Source: Candidatus Baldrarchaeota archaeon
GTDB lineage: Archaea > Asgardarchaeota > Baldrarchaeia > Baldrarchaeales > DXJG01
Direction of reading: 5' to 3'
DNA length: 32,000 nt
Assembly (NCBI GenBank): GCA_019056805.1
Contig: DXJG01000009.1
Span: 299,473-331,472, forward strand
Shown here: positions 6,896 through 13,606 of the stretch, piece after piece
Position numbering within the stretch: the stretch's first letter is position 1
Layout of the letters: each line of letters opens with the position of its first letter
Translations under genes and position numbers: made by a program
The notes under the pieces: model-generated
Databases searched by the model: none
What the model was told of the DNA's origin: nothing
Seen by the model: the letters and a program-made list of their open reading frames with translations, nothing else

Positions 6896-7138
6896 TTAAT
6901 CTATGTAACCAAGAGCTCTTAGTCTTTCTTTTATTTCTTCCTCCTCTTCCTCCGAAAATACTTCTTTCTCTTCTTCCAGTTTTGCAAGGTATTCTCTTAT
7001 TATGTGGGTTACCAAGCTTGAAACCGAAGAAAACTCTGTTTCCTTGACTTTTTCTTCAAGTTTTTTATATAGAGATGTTGGTATTAGAATTGAGGTGAAA
7101 TTTTTGCTTTTTGTTTTTTCTTCGGTCAATTTCATCAT
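6896..7138 (-). CDS. CopG/ribbon-helix-helix protein with acidic RLRALGYID tail (RHH-2)
   Basis: FTSILIPTSLYKKLEEKV...FSSVSSLVTHIIREYL is an RHH pattern; tail EEEEEEIKERLRALGYID; 7 bp upstream of sat. Confidence 0.82.
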   Translation of the reverse strand: MMKLTEEKTKSKNFTSILIPTSLYKKLEEKVKETEFSSVSSLVTHIIREYLAKLEEEKEVFSEEEEEEIKERLRALGYID

Positions 7139-7224: not shown

Positions 7225-8598
7225 TTAAGAAGTAAAAATCTGTTGAATAGGTTTCCCATCCATATAATTTGGTATTGGAACTTGTAATATCTTTAATATT
7301 GTTGGCGTCAAGTCGTAAAGATTAGCTTCAACTTCTAAGCCTTCAGGAATACCGTGTCCTAGTATAGCTAATATTCCTGGTACGTCTCTTGGATCATGTG
7401 TTCCATCATGTCCTCCATTCCACTTTTCAGACTTTACAATACATTTTTGAGTTTTATATTCCTTTGATTTGCCTCTACTTGCCTGCCAACCTGAATTAAA
7501 AAGTATTATTAGATCTGGGGCCTCCTCTACATAAGGCCCCCAATATACGTCTCGTGTAGCCACATACTTCACTACTTTTTGCCCATCTACCTCTATCTTC
7601 TCTAAATTTTTCTTAATTTTTTGCAGAATCTCTCCGTATTCTTCAGGTTTTATTTTCCCTTGCGGTTCTCTCCCCTTCAAATTTAACCATACATCTCCAT
7701 ACTCATACGCAACCGCCACACTACCTTCAACATCTATTTCTCCCTTAACATCTCCCTTTAGGAAACCTTGTTTATGTAGTAAGCAATTAACTAATACCTC
7801 ACTATGCACCGGACAGAAACCGTGATCAGAAAGCAAAATAAACAAAGTTTCCTCAAGATCTATATTCTCCAGAAACCTAGAAATAATTACATCCATTTTT
7901 TGATAATATCTCTTAACTTTCTCTGTAAACTCATTCTTCTCATATTCTGGATGTCTTTCATCCACATATTTCCAGAAAAAGTGCTGTATACGATCTGTAC
8001 CCATAAACACCGTTATAAAAAAATCCCATTCTTCTTCCTCAAGTAAAAATAAGCTTATATCCATTTGTATATCAGTTATTTCATCTACTCTTTCAAAAAA
8101 CTTGTCCGGTTCCTCCTTAACCCTTTCGAGTAGCTTTATTTCCACATCACCTTTAAACTGTTTAATTCCGAATTTGCCTTGTAATTTTTCTTTTATTTTG
8201 GTTGGATACGGTATCCCTTCATTTTTTGCTAGAAATCCTGGTATTATGAATCCGTTTAACTCTTCTGTTCTTGCCATGGGGACATTTATTACACCCACTT
8301 TTTTGTCATGTTCACTTAATATTTTCCATAGAGTTTTTGTTTTTATTTTATCAGGAGTATTCACTTTTCTTTTGTATGTCCCCTTTTCTCTTGTCATAAA
8401 GCTGAATATTCCATGCTTCCCCGGGTTTACTCCCGTCATAAAAGTTGTCCATGCCACCGGAGTTTGTGCTGGTAACGGCGGTATCGTTCTACCCATTATC
8501 CCCTGCTTTTTTATTTTTCTTAGAGCTGGCAGCGTCTCTATCCATTTTTCTACCAATATAGGTGACAAACCATCTGAGCCAATTACTAAGACCCTCAT
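7225..8598 (-). CDS. Alkaline phosphatase superfamily protein (NPP-like), paralog 3, Thr at nucleophile position
   Basis: IGSDGL, PAQTPVAW..FMTG.NPGKHG, DRIQH, LSDHGF, GGHDG, DLTPTIL. GGGAG RBS; no signal peptide. Confidence 0.9.
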   Translation of the reverse strand: MRVLVIGSDGLSPILVEKWIETLPALRKIKKQGIMGRTIPPLPAQTPVAWTTFMTGVNPGKHGIFSFMTREKGTYKRKVNTPDKIKTKTLWKILSEHDKKVGVINVPMARTEELNGFIIPGFLAKNEGIPYPTKIKEKLQGKFGIKQFKGDVEIKLLERVKEEPDKFFERVDEITDIQMDISLFLLEEEEWDFFITVFMGTDRIQHFFWKYVDERHPEYEKNEFTEKVKRYYQKMDVIISRFLENIDLEETLFILLSDHGFCPVHSEVLVNCLLHKQGFLKGDVKGEIDVEGSVAVAYEYGDVWLNLKGREPQGKIKPEEYGEILQKIKKNLEKIEVDGQKVVKYVATRDVYWGPYVEEAPDLIILFNSGWQASRGKSKEYKTQKCIVKSEKWNGGHDGTHDPRDVPGILAILGHGIPEGLEVEANLYDLTPTILKILQVPIPNYMDGKPIQQIFTS

Positions 8599-8658
8599 TT
8601 TCCAACTCCCTTAAATGATCAAGTACAACCCACGCTTAGGGCGAAACAATTAAATATA

Positions 8659-9666
8659 TCAAACTGCAGCTTTCTGTATCTTTTTAAGTCCTCTCATGGC
8701 TACTATGTATGCTGATGTTGTATGAACGTCTAGTCCCAAATCTCCCGCTATTATCTTAGCACTTATTGATGAGTATGCTGGATTAACCTTTATTAACTCT
8801 CCTTCAACCTTGGGGACTAAAACCTCCATCTGTTGTGTAAACTCCCTTAAAGCCATCTTTGAAATCTTCCTCTTAGCAGTCTTATTACCTTTAGGTTTTG
8901 GTTTAGACAATCTTTCAATAACATAGTATTTTACGCCGTGCTCTCTAGCATACTTCACAAGCTTAGTAAGGGATTCTCTCCTTAAAGAAACCGCCTTCTC
9001 CCTTGGAAATCCATGAGATGTAATCTCCATAAAATGCTCGTTTCTAACGTCTCTCATAATTCCCTGTCTATCAATTATCACCATATTTATCCTATCTGGG
9101 TTAAAGTCAAAGCCGGCAATATGTTCAGTAATCTTCGTCTTTGATTCTTTCCTCATATATTTAACGTAGAGTTCTAGTGGAATATTTATGTAGAGGATTA
9201 ATTTACTGTCTTTTGTACATATACCCGCTCCATAAGATATGTTGGAATTCGTCAATTCTTGAATTATCGGTATGTGTTTCCTTCCAAACTTTACTTTAGC
9301 TTTTAACCATCTATGTTTCCCAGTAGCTGAAGGTATTTTAATTAGCACGATTTCAGTCGACATTAACCTTATGTTTCTATTACCTTTCTCAGCTTTAACA
9401 CCAACCGAATATAATTGTGGTTTCTTAAGTTTGAGATACGGTTGCTCACTATACAGTTTTGCCCTTATGTATGCTGAACGCGAGTACCATTTATTGTTAA
9501 GTATTCTTGACGTTAACAGCTTGATTATTTTGTTTTCTTTTAATCCTTTCTTCAACAGTGAATGAGCATAGTCAACAGCATCTTTAAAGTTCCTCATAAC
9601 GTATAGTAAAAAGGCTTTATCCTCTGCTGAGCTGAGAACGAGCTTTCCCTTAATTGTAGGTCTCAC
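8659..9666 (-). CDS. tnpB: IS200/IS605 accessory TnpB-related RuvC protein lacking the C-terminal Zn ribbon
   Basis: GNRNIRL motif; RuvC-I GFDFNPD, RuvC-II VIERL, VNPAYSS, RuvC-III LDVH; no CxxC pairs. GTG 9666 overlaps the AbrB stop (GTGA); ORF track uses GTG 9678. Confidence 0.8.
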   Translation of the reverse strand: MRPTIKGKLVLSSAEDKAFLLYVMRNFKDAVDYAHSLLKKGLKENKIIKLLTSRILNNKWYSRSAYIRAKLYSEQPYLKLKKPQLYSVGVKAEKGNRNIRLMSTEIVLIKIPSATGKHRWLKAKVKFGRKHIPIIQELTNSNISYGAGICTKDSKLILYINIPLELYVKYMRKESKTKITEHIAGFDFNPDRINMVIIDRQGIMRDVRNEHFMEITSHGFPREKAVSLRRESLTKLVKYAREHGVKYYVIERLSKPKPKGNKTAKRKISKMALREFTQQMEVLVPKVEGELIKVNPAYSSISAKIIAGDLGLDVHTTSAYIVAMRGLKKIQKAAV

Positions 9667-9821
9667 TTCTTTTCCCACTTCTCGACCACCATCCTACCAT
9701 TCTTCTCATCATAGTAAACTACGAGCTTATCCTTTGGTTTAAGATCCCACTTCTCGGCAATCTCCTTAGGTATGGTCATCTTCATTTTGGGTAAAACCCT
9801 ATATACCCCTATTAACTCCAT
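9663..9821 (-). CDS. AbrB/MazE/SpoVT-family DNA-binding protein, 52 aa (missed by ORF track)
   Basis: MELIGVYRVLPKMKMTIPKEIAEKWDLKPKDKLVVYYDEKNGRMVVEKWEKK matches the xTIPKEIxxxxxLKPxDxL AbrB pattern. GGTGAT RBS; stop overlaps the tnpB start. Confidence 0.82.
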   Translation of the reverse strand: MELIGVYRVLPKMKMTIPKEIAEKWDLKPKDKLVVYYDEKNGRMVVEKWEKK

Positions 9822-9837
9822 GGTATCACCAGAAATA

Positions 9838-9871
9838 TTTATAAACCACTGAGTATATAAAAATTTTTAAG
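9838..9871. promoter_or_regulatory. Divergent archaeal promoter region (abrB-tnpB leftward, structured RNA rightward)
   Basis: TTTATAAA, TATATAAA and TTTTTAAG TATA-like boxes in a very AT-rich gap (6 G/C in 9831-9870). Confidence 0.45.
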
Positions 9872-10030
9872 CATCGACCCCTATGAAGAAGGCGAGGGGG
9901 ATGAGCACAGATGAACCCAGATTCGATGATGGGAGTGCTGAATTAGCGTGTAGGTGCTCCTTCAGTCGGGTCTGGGCGACTCACACCCGTGATGAGACAC
10001 TCTGTGTCAAAAGATATTAAAAGATACGGG
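9871..10030 (+). ncRNA. Candidate structured non-coding RNA, family unassigned
   Basis: 77/140 G+C in 9871-10010 versus AT-rich flanks. Hairpins 9872-9903, 9916-9976 (long, with G-U wobbles that pair only on the + strand) and 9996-10008. Repeated (A/G)TGA motifs, ACA after the first two hairpins, T-tract at 10050-10054. Confidence 0.55.
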
Positions 10031-10088
10031 GTGGTTGAACGGCATTAGCTTTTTATTGATTGTTGAGAATTTATTGTGGGGAATTGTT

Positions 10089-10274
10089 ATGAGTAAGGTA
10101 AAATATGTAAATATTTCTATCCCTAAGCCTTTATATGAACGTTTAGAAAAAGCTTTAAAGGACTCTGGCTATAGGAGTCCGACTGAATATATCATTTTCC
10201 TTATCAGGAAACATCTCGCTGACCTTGAGTCTGATGATCTCGATCGTAGATTAAAGGCCCTCGGCTACAAATAA
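10089..10274 (+). CDS. CopG/ribbon-helix-helix protein with RLKALGYK tail (RHH-3)
   Basis: MSKVKYVNISIPKPLYERLEKAL...YRSPTEYIIFLIRKHL is an RHH pattern; tail DDLDRRLKALGYK. ATG 10089 preferred over TTG 10035. Confidence 0.82.
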   Translation: MSKVKYVNISIPKPLYERLEKALKDSGYRSPTEYIIFLIRKHLADLESDDLDRRLKALGYK

Positions 10275-10377
10275 AATATCTGAAATTTATTAAAATTCTA
10301 CTTTTGTTAGTGTTTGGAGAAAGATGAAGTTTACTGTTCTGTTTTTAGACTTGTAGAAAGAGGAATAGTGAGTATTA

Positions 10378-10821
10378 TTATTCTTCACTACGAAATAGTA
10401 TTGTCAAGGCTCCAGCAGCGGTGCCTATTGCAGCTATTAGAAGATGGAGAAAATATGTCTGAAATATTATTAAACAAATTACAATTACCAGAGTAGCGGT
10501 TAAACTACCTCCCAATGTAAATTTTTTAAGTTTTGGTTGCTGCTTAAACCAGGTCCAGCCGTTTTTTAGTGAAATTTTGAGTTGATGAAAACCAAGGAGA
10601 ATTAGATTAATAAGAAGACGAGTGAAATCAAATAGTATGGACCCTCCGATGACAACGGCTTTATCGGTGCGTGGCGGGTTTGTGTACAAGTTTCTTGCTC
10701 CACATTTTTCACATTCTATGTATAAATAACCATTGCTACCGTAACCCCTAAGTAGAGTATAACCTTCCCAACCACATTCTTTACATTTTACATAGTAGCA
10801 ACTTTTAGTACGCTTATCCAT
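10378..10821 (-). CDS. Hypothetical Zn-ribbon membrane protein
   Basis: CKEC-x21-CEKC at the N-terminus and hydrophobic C-terminal helices. GAGG RBS before ATG 10821 (ORF track starts at 10842). Confidence 0.6.
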   Translation of the reverse strand: MDKRTKSCYYVKCKECGWEGYTLLRGYGSNGYLYIECEKCGARNLYTNPPRTDKAVVIGGSILFDFTRLLINLILLGFHQLKISLKNGWTWFKQQPKLKKFTLGGSLTATLVIVICLIIFQTYFLHLLIAAIGTAAGALTILFRSEE

Positions 10822-11059
10822 ATTTTTAACCTCAATTAACATTCTAAGCCCATTAACTATTTAAATCAATTGGATTTAACCATAAATCATTTATAAATAA
10901 TCATCATAGAAGATGATTATAACTAAAATCCATCGACAAAATATTTTAATACTATCAGTCGGGGGAAATTCTCTCTTCCATAAGGATGAGAATGAAAATA
11001 ACTTTCATATATTTCTGCTGCGATACTATAATAAAATACTATAAAGGGATCAATAATAC

Positions 11060-11175
11060 ATGTCAAAATTCGGAAGTTTGAGGAGAATAGTTATACCAAA
11101 ATCGATCTGCAAAAGACTCTTGTTATCAAGGAAAGTTATAAGGTAGAGGTTATATTTGAGAAGGTAGATGAATAA
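11060..11175 (+). pseudogene. Frameshifted AbrB/SpoVT-like ORF coupled to tnpB
   Basis: Frame from ATG 11060: MSKFGSLRRIVIPKSICKRL. The -1 frame from about 11122 gives VIKESYKVEVIFEKVDE*, whose TAA overlaps the tnpB ATG (TAATG). The composite resembles the AbrB consensus GRIVIPKEIRxxLGIKEGDKVEV. Confidence 0.5.
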
Positions 11176-12377
11176 TGCTTCTTAGCTACCGATTTCGCAT
11201 ATATCCTTCAAAAACGATCCAAGCTAAGCTGAATGAGCAACTTGAGATATGTAGATGGCTCTATAACCGACTATTAGAAGAAGTTAACAAGGCAAGAAAA
11301 GAAGGAAGGAAAATCAATAGGCAAGATACACAAGCCCTTATTGTAAAGCTCAAAGAGGAGAAGCCAGAACTAAACAAAGTTTACTCTAAGGTTTTGCAAA
11401 TGGTGAACTATCAGCTATGGTCAAACATTAAGACTTTAGCTGAATTGAAGCGAAAAGGAAAGAAAACTGGAACGCTAAGGTATAAAACTGGAAACTCATT
11501 CAAAACTCTGAATTTTAATCAATCAGGCTTTAAAATCGATTTTAAACGAAGGAAACTCGTCTTGTCCAAGGTTGGTGAGATTCCAATCAAGTTACACAGA
11601 AAAATTGAAGGAAAAATCAAAGGAGTTATAATCAAGAGGACAAAATCTGAAAAGTGGTTTGCACTCGTTCAACTCGAAGTTGTAGATGAAACGATACCAA
11701 AAACTGGAAGGGTCATTGGTATCGATATGGGAGTTCATCACTTCGCTACCGATTCAGATGGCAATCGTTTCGAAAACCCAAAGTTTCTAGATAAAACAAT
11801 AGAGAAGATAAGGAAAATCCAAAAAGTGCTATCAAGAAAACAGAAAGGTTCAAAGAATAGAGAAAAGGCTAGAAAGAGACTGGCTAAGCTTTACGAAAAA
11901 TTAGAAAATCAGAGAAACGATTTCCTTCACAAACTTTCCCGCTACTACATCAACAACTACGATGTTGTCTGCATTGAGGATTTAGATATTAAGAGTTTGG
12001 TTGAAAATAACAGATCCCACACTTTGAACCGTCACATTTTGGATGCTTCTTGGTCAAAGTTCATTCAACTACTCTTCTATAAGGCTGAAAGAGCTAATAG
12101 AAGAGTAGTTAAGGTAAATCCAAAAAATACATCAAGAATATGTGCTAGATGTGGTAAGATTATCAAGATTGAATTAAAGGACAGATTATTTGTTTGTCCT
12201 TATTGCAGTTGGGAGGCGGACAGAGATTATAATGCCTCCCTGAACATTCTGAATGCGGGGCTGGGACGGCCCTTAGCGCCTGTGGAGAGAGAACCTCTAC
12301 TCCGTATCGTTTCTTATTGGGAAGTAATTACGGGGCAAGTTCTCTCAATGAAGCAGGAAGCCCCTTGCGTCAGCTAG
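11175..12377 (+). CDS. tnpB: RNA-guided endonuclease TnpB (IS200/IS605, IS1341-like, no TnpA)
   Basis: N-terminal YRFRIYP HTH_OrfB; RuvC IGIDMG, CIEDL, DRDYNASLNI; CARC/CPYC Zn ribbon. All catalytic residues present. Confidence 0.95.
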   Translation: MLLSYRFRIYPSKTIQAKLNEQLEICRWLYNRLLEEVNKARKEGRKINRQDTQALIVKLKEEKPELNKVYSKVLQMVNYQLWSNIKTLAELKRKGKKTGTLRYKTGNSFKTLNFNQSGFKIDFKRRKLVLSKVGEIPIKLHRKIEGKIKGVIIKRTKSEKWFALVQLEVVDETIPKTGRVIGIDMGVHHFATDSDGNRFENPKFLDKTIEKIRKIQKVLSRKQKGSKNREKARKRLAKLYEKLENQRNDFLHKLSRYYINNYDVVCIEDLDIKSLVENNRSHTLNRHILDASWSKFIQLLFYKAERANRRVVKVNPKNTSRICARCGKIIKIELKDRLFVCPYCSWEADRDYNASLNILNAGLGRPLAPVEREPLLRIVSYWEVITGQVLSMKQEAPCVS

Positions 12378-12388
12378 GGGTAGTTCAC
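11175..12388 (+). mobile_element. Non-autonomous IS1341-like element; left end not located
   Basis: tnpB only, no Y1 or serine transposase nearby; right end defined at ...TTCAC 12388. Confidence 0.7.
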
Positions 12389-12408
12389 CTACTTAAGCCA
12401 TAAGTGAC
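12240..12408 (+). ncRNA. omegaRNA/right end of the TnpB element with putative guide CTACTTAAGCCATAAGTGAC (12389-12408)
   Basis: GAAGCCCCT-TGCGTCAGCT-AGGGG-TAGTTCAC right-end hairpin (12361-12365/12376-12380) ending in TCAC and overlapping the tnpB stop. The 5' boundary is approximate. Confidence 0.75.
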
Positions 12409-12517
12409 AAATATTATCATGACATTTATATATCTACATGTATTGTATTAACGTGTCTAAATATAAAATAAGGAGAAATACGATGTAAGAACTCCGAGAG
12501 TAACCTGAGGGGACTAC

Positions 12518-13606
12518 ATGAGAAAGCCAACAATATCTTTGATTATTCCCACGTATAATGAAAAAGAAAACCTACCAGTGCTCGTAAGAAGAATTCACGA
12601 ATCGTTATCTAACTATTGTGACTACGAAATTATCGTTGTTGATGACGATAGCCCCGATGAAACCTGGAAAGTTGCACAAGAACTATCAAAACAATACCCA
12701 GTACGAGTAATCAGACGCGAGGGAAAACTAGGATTATCCTCCGCAGTAATCGAAGGATTCAAACAAGCACGCGGAGAACTCCTCGGCGTAATGGACGCAG
12801 ACCTACAACACCCACCAGAAATACTCCCAAACTTAATAGAAGAAATAAAAAACGGCAAAGACATCGTAGTAGCAAGTAGATACGTCAAAGGAGGAAAAAT
12901 AGAAAACTGGGGACTAAAACGAAAAATAGTATCCAAAGGAGCCAGATTTCTAACAAAAGTCCTAGTTCCACAAGCAAGAAGCATAAAAGACCCCCTCTCA
13001 GGCTACTTCATTCTCAGAAGAGAAGTAGTTGAAGAAGCAGAGTTAAATCCAGTCGGATACAAAATCCTCCTAGAAATCTTAGTAAAAGGAAGCTACGAAG
13101 AGGTAGCGGAAGTCCCCTTCACTTTTGGAACAAGAGAGATGGGGAAAAGCAAATTAACGGTAGGCGAGTACACTAACTTTTTAAGACATTTATATAGACT
13201 TTCAGAAACTGTAGGAGAAGTCGTAAAATTAGTTAGATACATGGTAATAAGTGTACTATCATTATTTGTAAATGTCTTTTTCTTTCTTGCTTTAACAAAC
13301 TATCTCAACCTTCACTACTTGTACTCCTCTATTCTAAGTTTAGAAGCCATGATACTATTCAGTTTTGTCTTAAGCGAAATGTGGATCTCAAAAAACAGAA
13401 AAATTAAGAAACCAACTAGCGCCGTGTTGAGAGCTGTAAAATATAACATGTTATGCTTGGGAGGTTTACTAATAAACATTGGCATTCTATGGCTATTTAC
13501 AAATGTTTTCAACGTCTACTATCTCATCTCAAACTTCTTCGGCGCAACCGGGGCGGTCATATGGAACTATGCAATGAACGTTTGGTTAACATGGAAAACA
13601 CGGTAG
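12518..13606 (+). CDS. GT2 polyprenol/dolichol-phosphate glycosyltransferase (DPM1-like) fused to a GtrA-like flippase domain
   Basis: IIPTYNE, DDDSPDET, MDADLQHPPE, SRYVKGG, DPLSGYF, GYKILLE, GKSKL, followed by four TM segments ending WNYAMNVWLTWK. Confidence 0.9.
   Translation: MRKPTISLIIPTYNEKENLPVLVRRIHESLSNYCDYEIIVVDDDSPDETWKVAQELSKQYPVRVIRREGKLGLSSAVIEGFKQARGELLGVMDADLQHPPEILPNLIEEIKNGKDIVVASRYVKGGKIENWGLKRKIVSKGARFLTKVLVPQARSIKDPLSGYFILRREVVEEAELNPVGYKILLEILVKGSYEEVAEVPFTFGTREMGKSKLTVGEYTNFLRHLYRLSETVGEVVKLVRYMVISVLSLFVNVFFFLALTNYLNLHYLYSSILSLEAMILFSFVLSEMWISKNRKIKKPTSAVLRAVKYNMLCLGGLLINIGILWLFTNVFNVYYLISNFFGATGAVIWNYAMNVWLTWKTR

Follow-up and report, generated by a model that had tools for sequence, protein, structure and literature searches.

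When a small gene of antitoxin fold directly precedes the gene for a compact RNA-guided nuclease, is the pair mobile, and where is its guide encoded? This question is raised by a window of 32,000 nt (the whole stretch of DNA analysed here) from Candidatus Baldrarchaeota archaeon (GCA_019056805.1, contig DXJG01000009.1, positions 299,473-331,472, forward strand), in which an abrB gene overlaps the start of a tnpB gene. An earlier note on this DNA had offered two readings, a non-autonomous element or a domesticated antitoxin with its nuclease. TnpB proteins of clade RIIIr-4 were previously described as devoid of a zinc finger and as carrying a His in RuvC-III, and their archaeal branch as following an AbrB/MazE or RHH gene; this RHH/MazE-TnpB branch was listed among the non-mobile clades, with a suggested guide in a long 3' UTR, and was proposed to form toxin-antitoxin pairs (Altae-Tran et al., 2023; PMC10691335).

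Four genomes of the genus were compared, among them the genome of the window itself (G000, 91% complete) and the congeners G001 and G003, and about 90 loci were fetched around TnpB relatives. These elements are kin, and the counts across them given below are therefore non-independent.

The gene pair and its catalytic site

The ORF at 8659-9678 (minus strand) gave weak matches to the TnpB models TIGR01766 and NF040570 and belongs to PF27229 (SSO2105_N); its AlphaFold model (pLDDT 91.5) matches Cas12f and TnpB structures. It contains a single Cys and no CxxC, hence no C4 zinc finger, as the earlier note had read. The D/E/D RuvC site proposed there holds for the first two residues, D191 and E255, but the third is a His: across 60 homologs, some as little as about 37% identical, D191, E255, H319 and the residues next to them do not vary, and D317 is only nearly invariant. 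Since H319 occupies the position of the third catalytic Asp of canonical TnpB, the RuvC site is read as D/E/H; judged from the alignment, this D-to-H change is the rearrangement typical of clade RIIIr-4.

The start of tnpB was placed by comparison. The GTG at 9678 aligns with an ATG or GTG in 11 of 16 copies, and the remaining five have an ATG at most one codon downstream of this position. The GTGA overlap with abrB previously claimed is present in the sequence (GTG at 9666), but this codon is not conserved, being replaced by ATA or GTA in several homologs. Translation likely starts at 9678, which would give a TnpB of 339 aa, instead of about 335, and a 16-nt overlap with abrB. The abrB gene itself, previously unannotated, is real: the ORF at 9663-9821 (minus strand) encodes a 52-aa protein of AbrB/MazE fold (PF04014, E=5e-9).

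In its archaeal host, the AbrB/MazE or RHH gene directly upstream, the Asp to His change in RuvC-III and the missing C4 zinc finger, the pair matches the description of the published RHH/MazE branch, to which it would belong on these features. The abrB-tnpB gene pair is thus already described, and is not new (PMC10691335). No paper naming SSO2105 was found in the literature searched, and no relative was found in the viral contigs searched.

An insertion with two defined ends

The search for further copies and empty sites proposed in the earlier note yielded both. First, the orthologous AlkP and RHH genes are adjacent in the congener G001, and the element is absent. With 8642-10042 removed from the window, the intergenic sequence aligned with that of G001; the right flank resumed exactly past the core, the left flank showed two small gaps, and the core itself has diverged at the G001 site, with one G in place. 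Second, more than 10 groups of 86-99% identical elements occupy unrelated flanks. Identity among such near-identical elements begins at NN-GTT[CT], about 330-420 bp before tnpB, and stops about 10-45 bp past tnpB, these 10-45 bp being the only conserved sequence 3' of the gene; the boundaries 8640 and 10042 in the window agree with those of its near-identical relatives. On these alignments, the abrB-tnpB pair lies in an insertion whose ends are defined and have the same 2-bp core. The whole element extends from 8640 to 10042 (1,403 bp with both GG cores, 1,401 bp inserted); a 2-bp crossover core and a 2-bp target duplication would both fit its sequence.

A repeat search revealed neither terminal inverted repeats nor a target duplication beyond chance, and G000 carries a single copy of the element. 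As had been noticed earlier, no transposase is encoded inside it, and the gap between the TnpB stop and the AlkP start is 60 bp long and holds no hairpin. The reading as a non-autonomous element is borne out by the empty G001 site, the near-identical copies at unrelated loci, the IS607-type ends described below and the conserved linkage to a small DNA-binding gene, whereas a domesticated antitoxin plus nuclease is unsupported, the ends being defined IS ends and the copies lying at differing sites. The earlier note had set against its own proposal the finding of copies with defined IS ends and no conserved AbrB linkage; most of this was found, namely defined ends and copies elsewhere, but the linkage to the small-gene slot is conserved.

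Several observations concern the neighbourhood. Two RHH genes of the host sulfate-activation/AlkP cluster (6896-7138 and 10089-10274), which share a C-terminal tail, are host genes, present at the empty site and outside the element. A second TnpB of 400 aa with two CxxC is encoded at 11175-12390 (plus strand), with a weak RAGATH-18 match at 12279-12359; because it is absent from the orthologous site of G001, it is regarded as a second, canonical tnpA-less insertion, 1.1 kb away. In G001, an AbrB-like and PIN-like pair, recognized by eye between AlkP and the next RHH gene (L122:753-1405, minus strand) and absent from the window, probably represents a genuine VapBC module within this cluster. 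Assembly of reads from four DNA runs against the locus gave short contigs only and no joint; one contig of run X4 agrees with the window as far as 8618 but then runs into 255 unrelated bases that are absent from G000, which is either another allele or an assembly artefact.

IS607-type ends around an inverted cassette

IS607 elements insert at (G)GG without duplication, by recombination at a dinucleotide core (PMC6188088). On the plus strand, the short end beyond tnpB reads G-core-spacer-GAAAC(A/T)(G/A)T. In the window, this IS607-like left end (8639-8650) is composed of a G, the core GG (8640-8641), a short spacer and the GAAACAAT motif, the G and the core together forming the predicted TAM. 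The same dinucleotide, GG, is found at the other junction (10041-10042, plus strand). The two cores also match each other across the family (CC with CC, GG with GG and GA with GA on the gene strand): the far end was CC in 15 and GG in none of 26 CC-type elements, and GG in 11 and CC in none of 12 GG-type elements.

Of 11 autonomous IS607 elements from these genomes, five carry the left-end motif ahead of tnpA, where shuffling expects 0.09; it was undetected in the other six, which counts against the IS607 assignment. Most autonomous IS607 elements in these genomes finish with GAAC-GG or GAAC-CC just past their own tnpB, like the long end here. The left end of the element is thus its short end, beyond tnpB, and the right end its long one, so that abrB-tnpB would be inverted between the two. 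This back-to-front cassette accounts for the missing hairpin after tnpB, where the element has its left end. One distant member of PF27229 has the normal layout, following a serine tnpA, which tentatively suggests that the inversion is derived.

Where could a transposase come from? Five carrier genomes were tested: IS607 tnpA scored above cut-off in every one, Y1 tnpA in a single one. Co-occurrence of IS607 tnpA with the element is weak evidence, as the gene is widespread in archaea of this kind. The congeners G001 and G003 also have an IS607 tnpA, and none of the four genus genomes contains a Y1 tnpA. In G000 (91% complete) the search gave no IS607 tnpA, which, together with its single copy of the element, means that this copy may be stranded.

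A conserved structured RNA upstream of the pair

The earlier note had reported no obvious right-end hairpin. The wrong end had been inspected: the strong, conserved structure is on the other side of the pair, at about 9870-10042 ahead of abrB, and was overlooked because of this upstream position on the opposite strand. Of the 73 loci with enough flank, 70 proved by nhmmer profiles to carry a conserved block of about 175 nt, on the strand opposite to the small gene and upstream of it; 31 of them were used to build the profile. It also accompanies TnpB proteins of about 40-54% identity, found in Archaeoglobus profundus (DSM 5631; CP001857, about 974.2-974.5 kb), Vulcanisaeta souniana and Staphylothermus hellenicus (in the last as far as the contig reaches). 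The profile failed to detect the upstream regions of the most distant members (L152-L157); by eye, L154 has a similar terminal module and L156 none, and L170 was examined by eye only. An Rfam scan of 8400-12700 matched no family to this RNA.

Folding z-scores were -3.5 on the plus strand and -1.1 on the minus strand. In an alignment of 38 sequences, 27 of 30 pairs showed compensated changes and 92% of cells paired, compared with 34-53% in slid controls; two near-invariant U-G pairs fix the strand of the RNA. The putative scaffold (9870-10042, plus strand, with a predicted 5' end) comprises a 5' hairpin with a K-loop-like motif (9871-9906), a long central helix (9916-9977) and a terminal module; all three are on the plus strand, and in the last one ACGG (10039-10042) is the pairing partner of CCGT (9987-9990) across a GAUGA/GA K-turn-like motif. 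Pairing between the last four bases and the internal tetramer is complete in 55 of 59 elements, against a mean of 30 and a maximum of 42 in shuffles, and follows the core through GG, CC and TC. The K-loop pattern was found in 48 of the 59 RNAs; the opposite strand gave it once, and shuffles 0.9 times. The K-turn pattern (stem, 3-nt bulge, GA, partner GA, stem) is followed there, and by the terminal motif too; genes of the L7Ae family are present in G000. The 3' ends of L133, L134, L161, L162, L167 and L168, which are autonomous IS607 elements with other TnpB types, are ATGA-rich and finish with GAAC-GG or GAAC-CC; K-turn-like omegaRNA ends may therefore be general in thermophilic archaeal IS607.

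The AT-rich region between RNA and abrB (9822-9870), a putative divergent promoter, contains TATA-like boxes at about 9838-9846 and 9854-9861, and TATA-like hexamers concentrate 32-39 nt ahead of the RNA's first helix in the 59 elements. A sigma-70 promoter scan was set aside as unsuited to archaea.

The scaffold ends at the element boundary and is followed by flank that varies between loci past the right-end core, which is an omegaRNA-type arrangement. The TAMs of IS607 TnpBs include TGGG and GGG, and their scaffolds finish with the core (10.1101/2023.11.20.567912; PMC10711439); GGG is also the TAM of the ISXfa1 TnpB. By analogy, host flank past the core (about 10043-10062, plus strand) would supply the guide, and would target the empty site; no other match of 14 nt or more was found in G000. 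Ahead of the core, at base -3, the empty site has a G and the filled site a C. The upstream RNA is thus likely to be an omegaRNA with its guide read from the flank, and its predicted TAM is GGG. Because tnpB here points towards the left end, the RNA cannot derive from the 3' end of the tnpB mRNA. The probable omegaRNA of this element was not found in the literature searched, and a paper on archaeal circular omegaRNAs makes no mention of IS607, K-turns or L7Ae.

Some elements carry other cores, TC in L034 and L035 and CC in L005, L028-L032, L056-L060 and L070-L073; each of these natural switches of the junction dinucleotide is matched by a change in the internal partner within the RNA. Differing TAMs are predicted from these core switches.

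An exchangeable small gene beside a putative promoter

The frequency of an upstream AbrB gene, a check suggested previously, was surveyed in 71 loci. A small overlapping ORF is kept in 69, AbrB itself in only 27 of them; 38 encode an RHH protein and two a Zn-ribbon, and in two the frame was wrongly picked. One sub-lineage (L022:540-665, L029:702-821) encodes in this slot a protein of about 40 aa with two CxxC, which is neither AbrB nor RHH. In a TnpB tree that excluded rows with broken or cut genes (L019 and L037 being labelled by similarity to their neighbours), the well-supported branches force at least five swaps of the small-gene fold. The trait common to the three folds is most plausibly DNA binding, and their interchange fits a role of the small gene as promoter repressor. 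The simplest reading, which we consider probable, is that the small protein represses the divergent promoter, AbrB being the putative repressor here; a transposon-encoded RHH protein represses IS605 promoters (10.64898/2026.09.24.754181).

In the type II toxin-antitoxin model of Altae-Tran et al. (2023), TnpB would be a toxin blocked by the small protein, with a guide in the 3' UTR and no mobility. The operon order, small gene then nuclease, agrees with this model, as do the patchy distribution, the AbrB/MazE and RHH folds typical of antitoxins (PMC10691335) and the single copy in G000, and an addiction effect would be compatible with mobility. However, the pair is mobile, as seen from the empty site and the relocated near-identical copies, and the 10-45 bp conserved 3' of tnpB contrast with a long 3' UTR containing a guide. 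Furthermore, three unrelated folds and at least five swaps are hard to square with one protein-protein interface, and the 52-aa AbrB is essentially the DNA-binding fold, devoid of an extra tail. We therefore regard the toxin-antitoxin model as unlikely. Direct inhibition of TnpB by the small protein is possible. Prediction of an AbrB-TnpB complex gave a score of 0.26, against a mark of 0.32, and was counted neither for nor against it.

A proposed cycle for the element

We consider it probable that the locus is a non-autonomous transposon of the IS607 family, whose gene cassette points away from the guide-RNA end and whose nuclease cuts sites reading G-core-guide. An IS607 serine transposase encoded elsewhere would excise and insert the element by crossover at the core. 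From the divergent promoter, the abrB-tnpB mRNA would be transcribed in one direction and a separate omegaRNA in the opposite one, and the latter would read through the right end, taking the flank as guide. TnpB, with its D/E/H site, and the RNA would then cut empty sites (G-core-guide, GGG here) and spare the filled site (C-core), so that the element would be retained or spread, as with other IS607 TnpBs. The small DNA-binding protein would repress the shared promoter and limit the dose of nuclease, and the GAUGA/GA motifs would be K-turns, probably bound by the host L7Ae.

To a broader proposal we would give slightly less than an even chance. These loci would represent an archaeal lineage of IS607-derived selfish elements with a flipped cassette, a separately transcribed guide RNA stabilized by K-turns and L7Ae, and an active 339-aa D/E/H nuclease devoid of zinc finger, in which the TAM (GGG, GCC or GTC) is re-specified together with the core and terminal stem, and in which exchangeable repressors set the dose.

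Alternatively, the element may be mobile but its D/E/H TnpB may no longer cut, and may bind the site specified by the RNA, nick it, or assist transposition or repression. The third catalytic Asp is replaced by His and the zinc finger is gone, and no activity data were found in the literature searched for RIIIr-4, one of the five major TnpB clades. Loss of cutting is nevertheless improbable: D191, E255, H319 and their neighbours are invariant in proteins down to about 37% identity, dN/dS between related TnpB copies is about 0.15 (0.13-0.20), the -3 base, G in empty and C in filled sites, agrees with the way in which a cutting IS607 TnpB avoids its own element, and the guides are not conserved, unlike those of a domesticated regulator. 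Finally, that the structured region is not the guide of TnpB, being instead a DNA end for a Y1 (IS200/IS605) transposase or an unrelated passenger RNA, is very unlikely: the pairing of an internal tetramer with the terminus across a subterminal hairpin resembles the guide/cleavage-site pairing of IS608, and Rfam gave no match, but the near-invariant U-G pairs and the K-turn-like motifs work on one strand only, the same core is present at both ends, the four genus genomes have no Y1 tnpA, and the ends match those of IS607 elements.

Relation to known elements and significance

Like the IS607 elements CboIStron, ISXfa1 and ISC1926, the present element lacks terminal inverted repeats, has one dinucleotide core at both junctions, prefers a (G)GG target and has an RNA scaffold ending in the core (PMC6188088; PMC10711439; 10.1101/2023.11.20.567912). 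It shares its end motifs with the local archaeal IS607 elements, and with CboIStron the -3 base that differs between empty and filled sites and that spares CboIStron from its own TnpB. In contrast with these elements, it has no tnpA, its scaffold is absent from Rfam (it is neither RAGATH-18 nor HEARO), K-turn-like motifs are present, and natural switches between GG, CC and TC cores are accompanied by compensating RNA changes. In the canonical IS607 layout, tnpB is upstream of the right-end RNA and co-directional with it, whereas here the two are on opposite strands in 70 of 73 loci. IS200/IS605 (Y1) elements have a TAM at one end only and subterminal DNA hairpins at both; here the core is found at both ends, the short end has no hairpin and Y1 tnpA is present in only one of five carrier genomes.

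Arc-regulated IS605 elements similarly encode a small DNA-binding protein beside a bidirectional promoter controlling tnpB (10.64898/2026.09.24.754181). However, they are bacterial, have a Y1 tnpA and often carry arc divergent from tnpB; here the ends are of IS607 type, and the small gene, which occurs with three interchangeable folds, is co-directional with tnpB and overlaps it.

In conclusion, the locus is a back-to-front, transposase-less IS607 element that carries the published RHH/MazE-TnpB pair and a probable omegaRNA. The archaeal RIIIr-4 branch had been published as a non-mobile toxin-antitoxin, its guide being sought downstream; here the pair is mobile, has IS607 ends and is accompanied by a conserved RNA, encoded divergently on its upstream side. 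Whereas tnpB as a rule points towards its own guide, here it does not, and pipelines scanning only downstream of tnpB therefore miss this RNA. With the RNA placed upstream, the boundary between scaffold and guide defined to the base and a TAM predicted, the D/E/H site becomes directly testable, and the RNA occurs in cultured hosts (A. profundus, V. souniana and S. hellenicus). The natural core and TAM variants, and a possible dependence on L7Ae, are relevant to very small, heat-stable editors.
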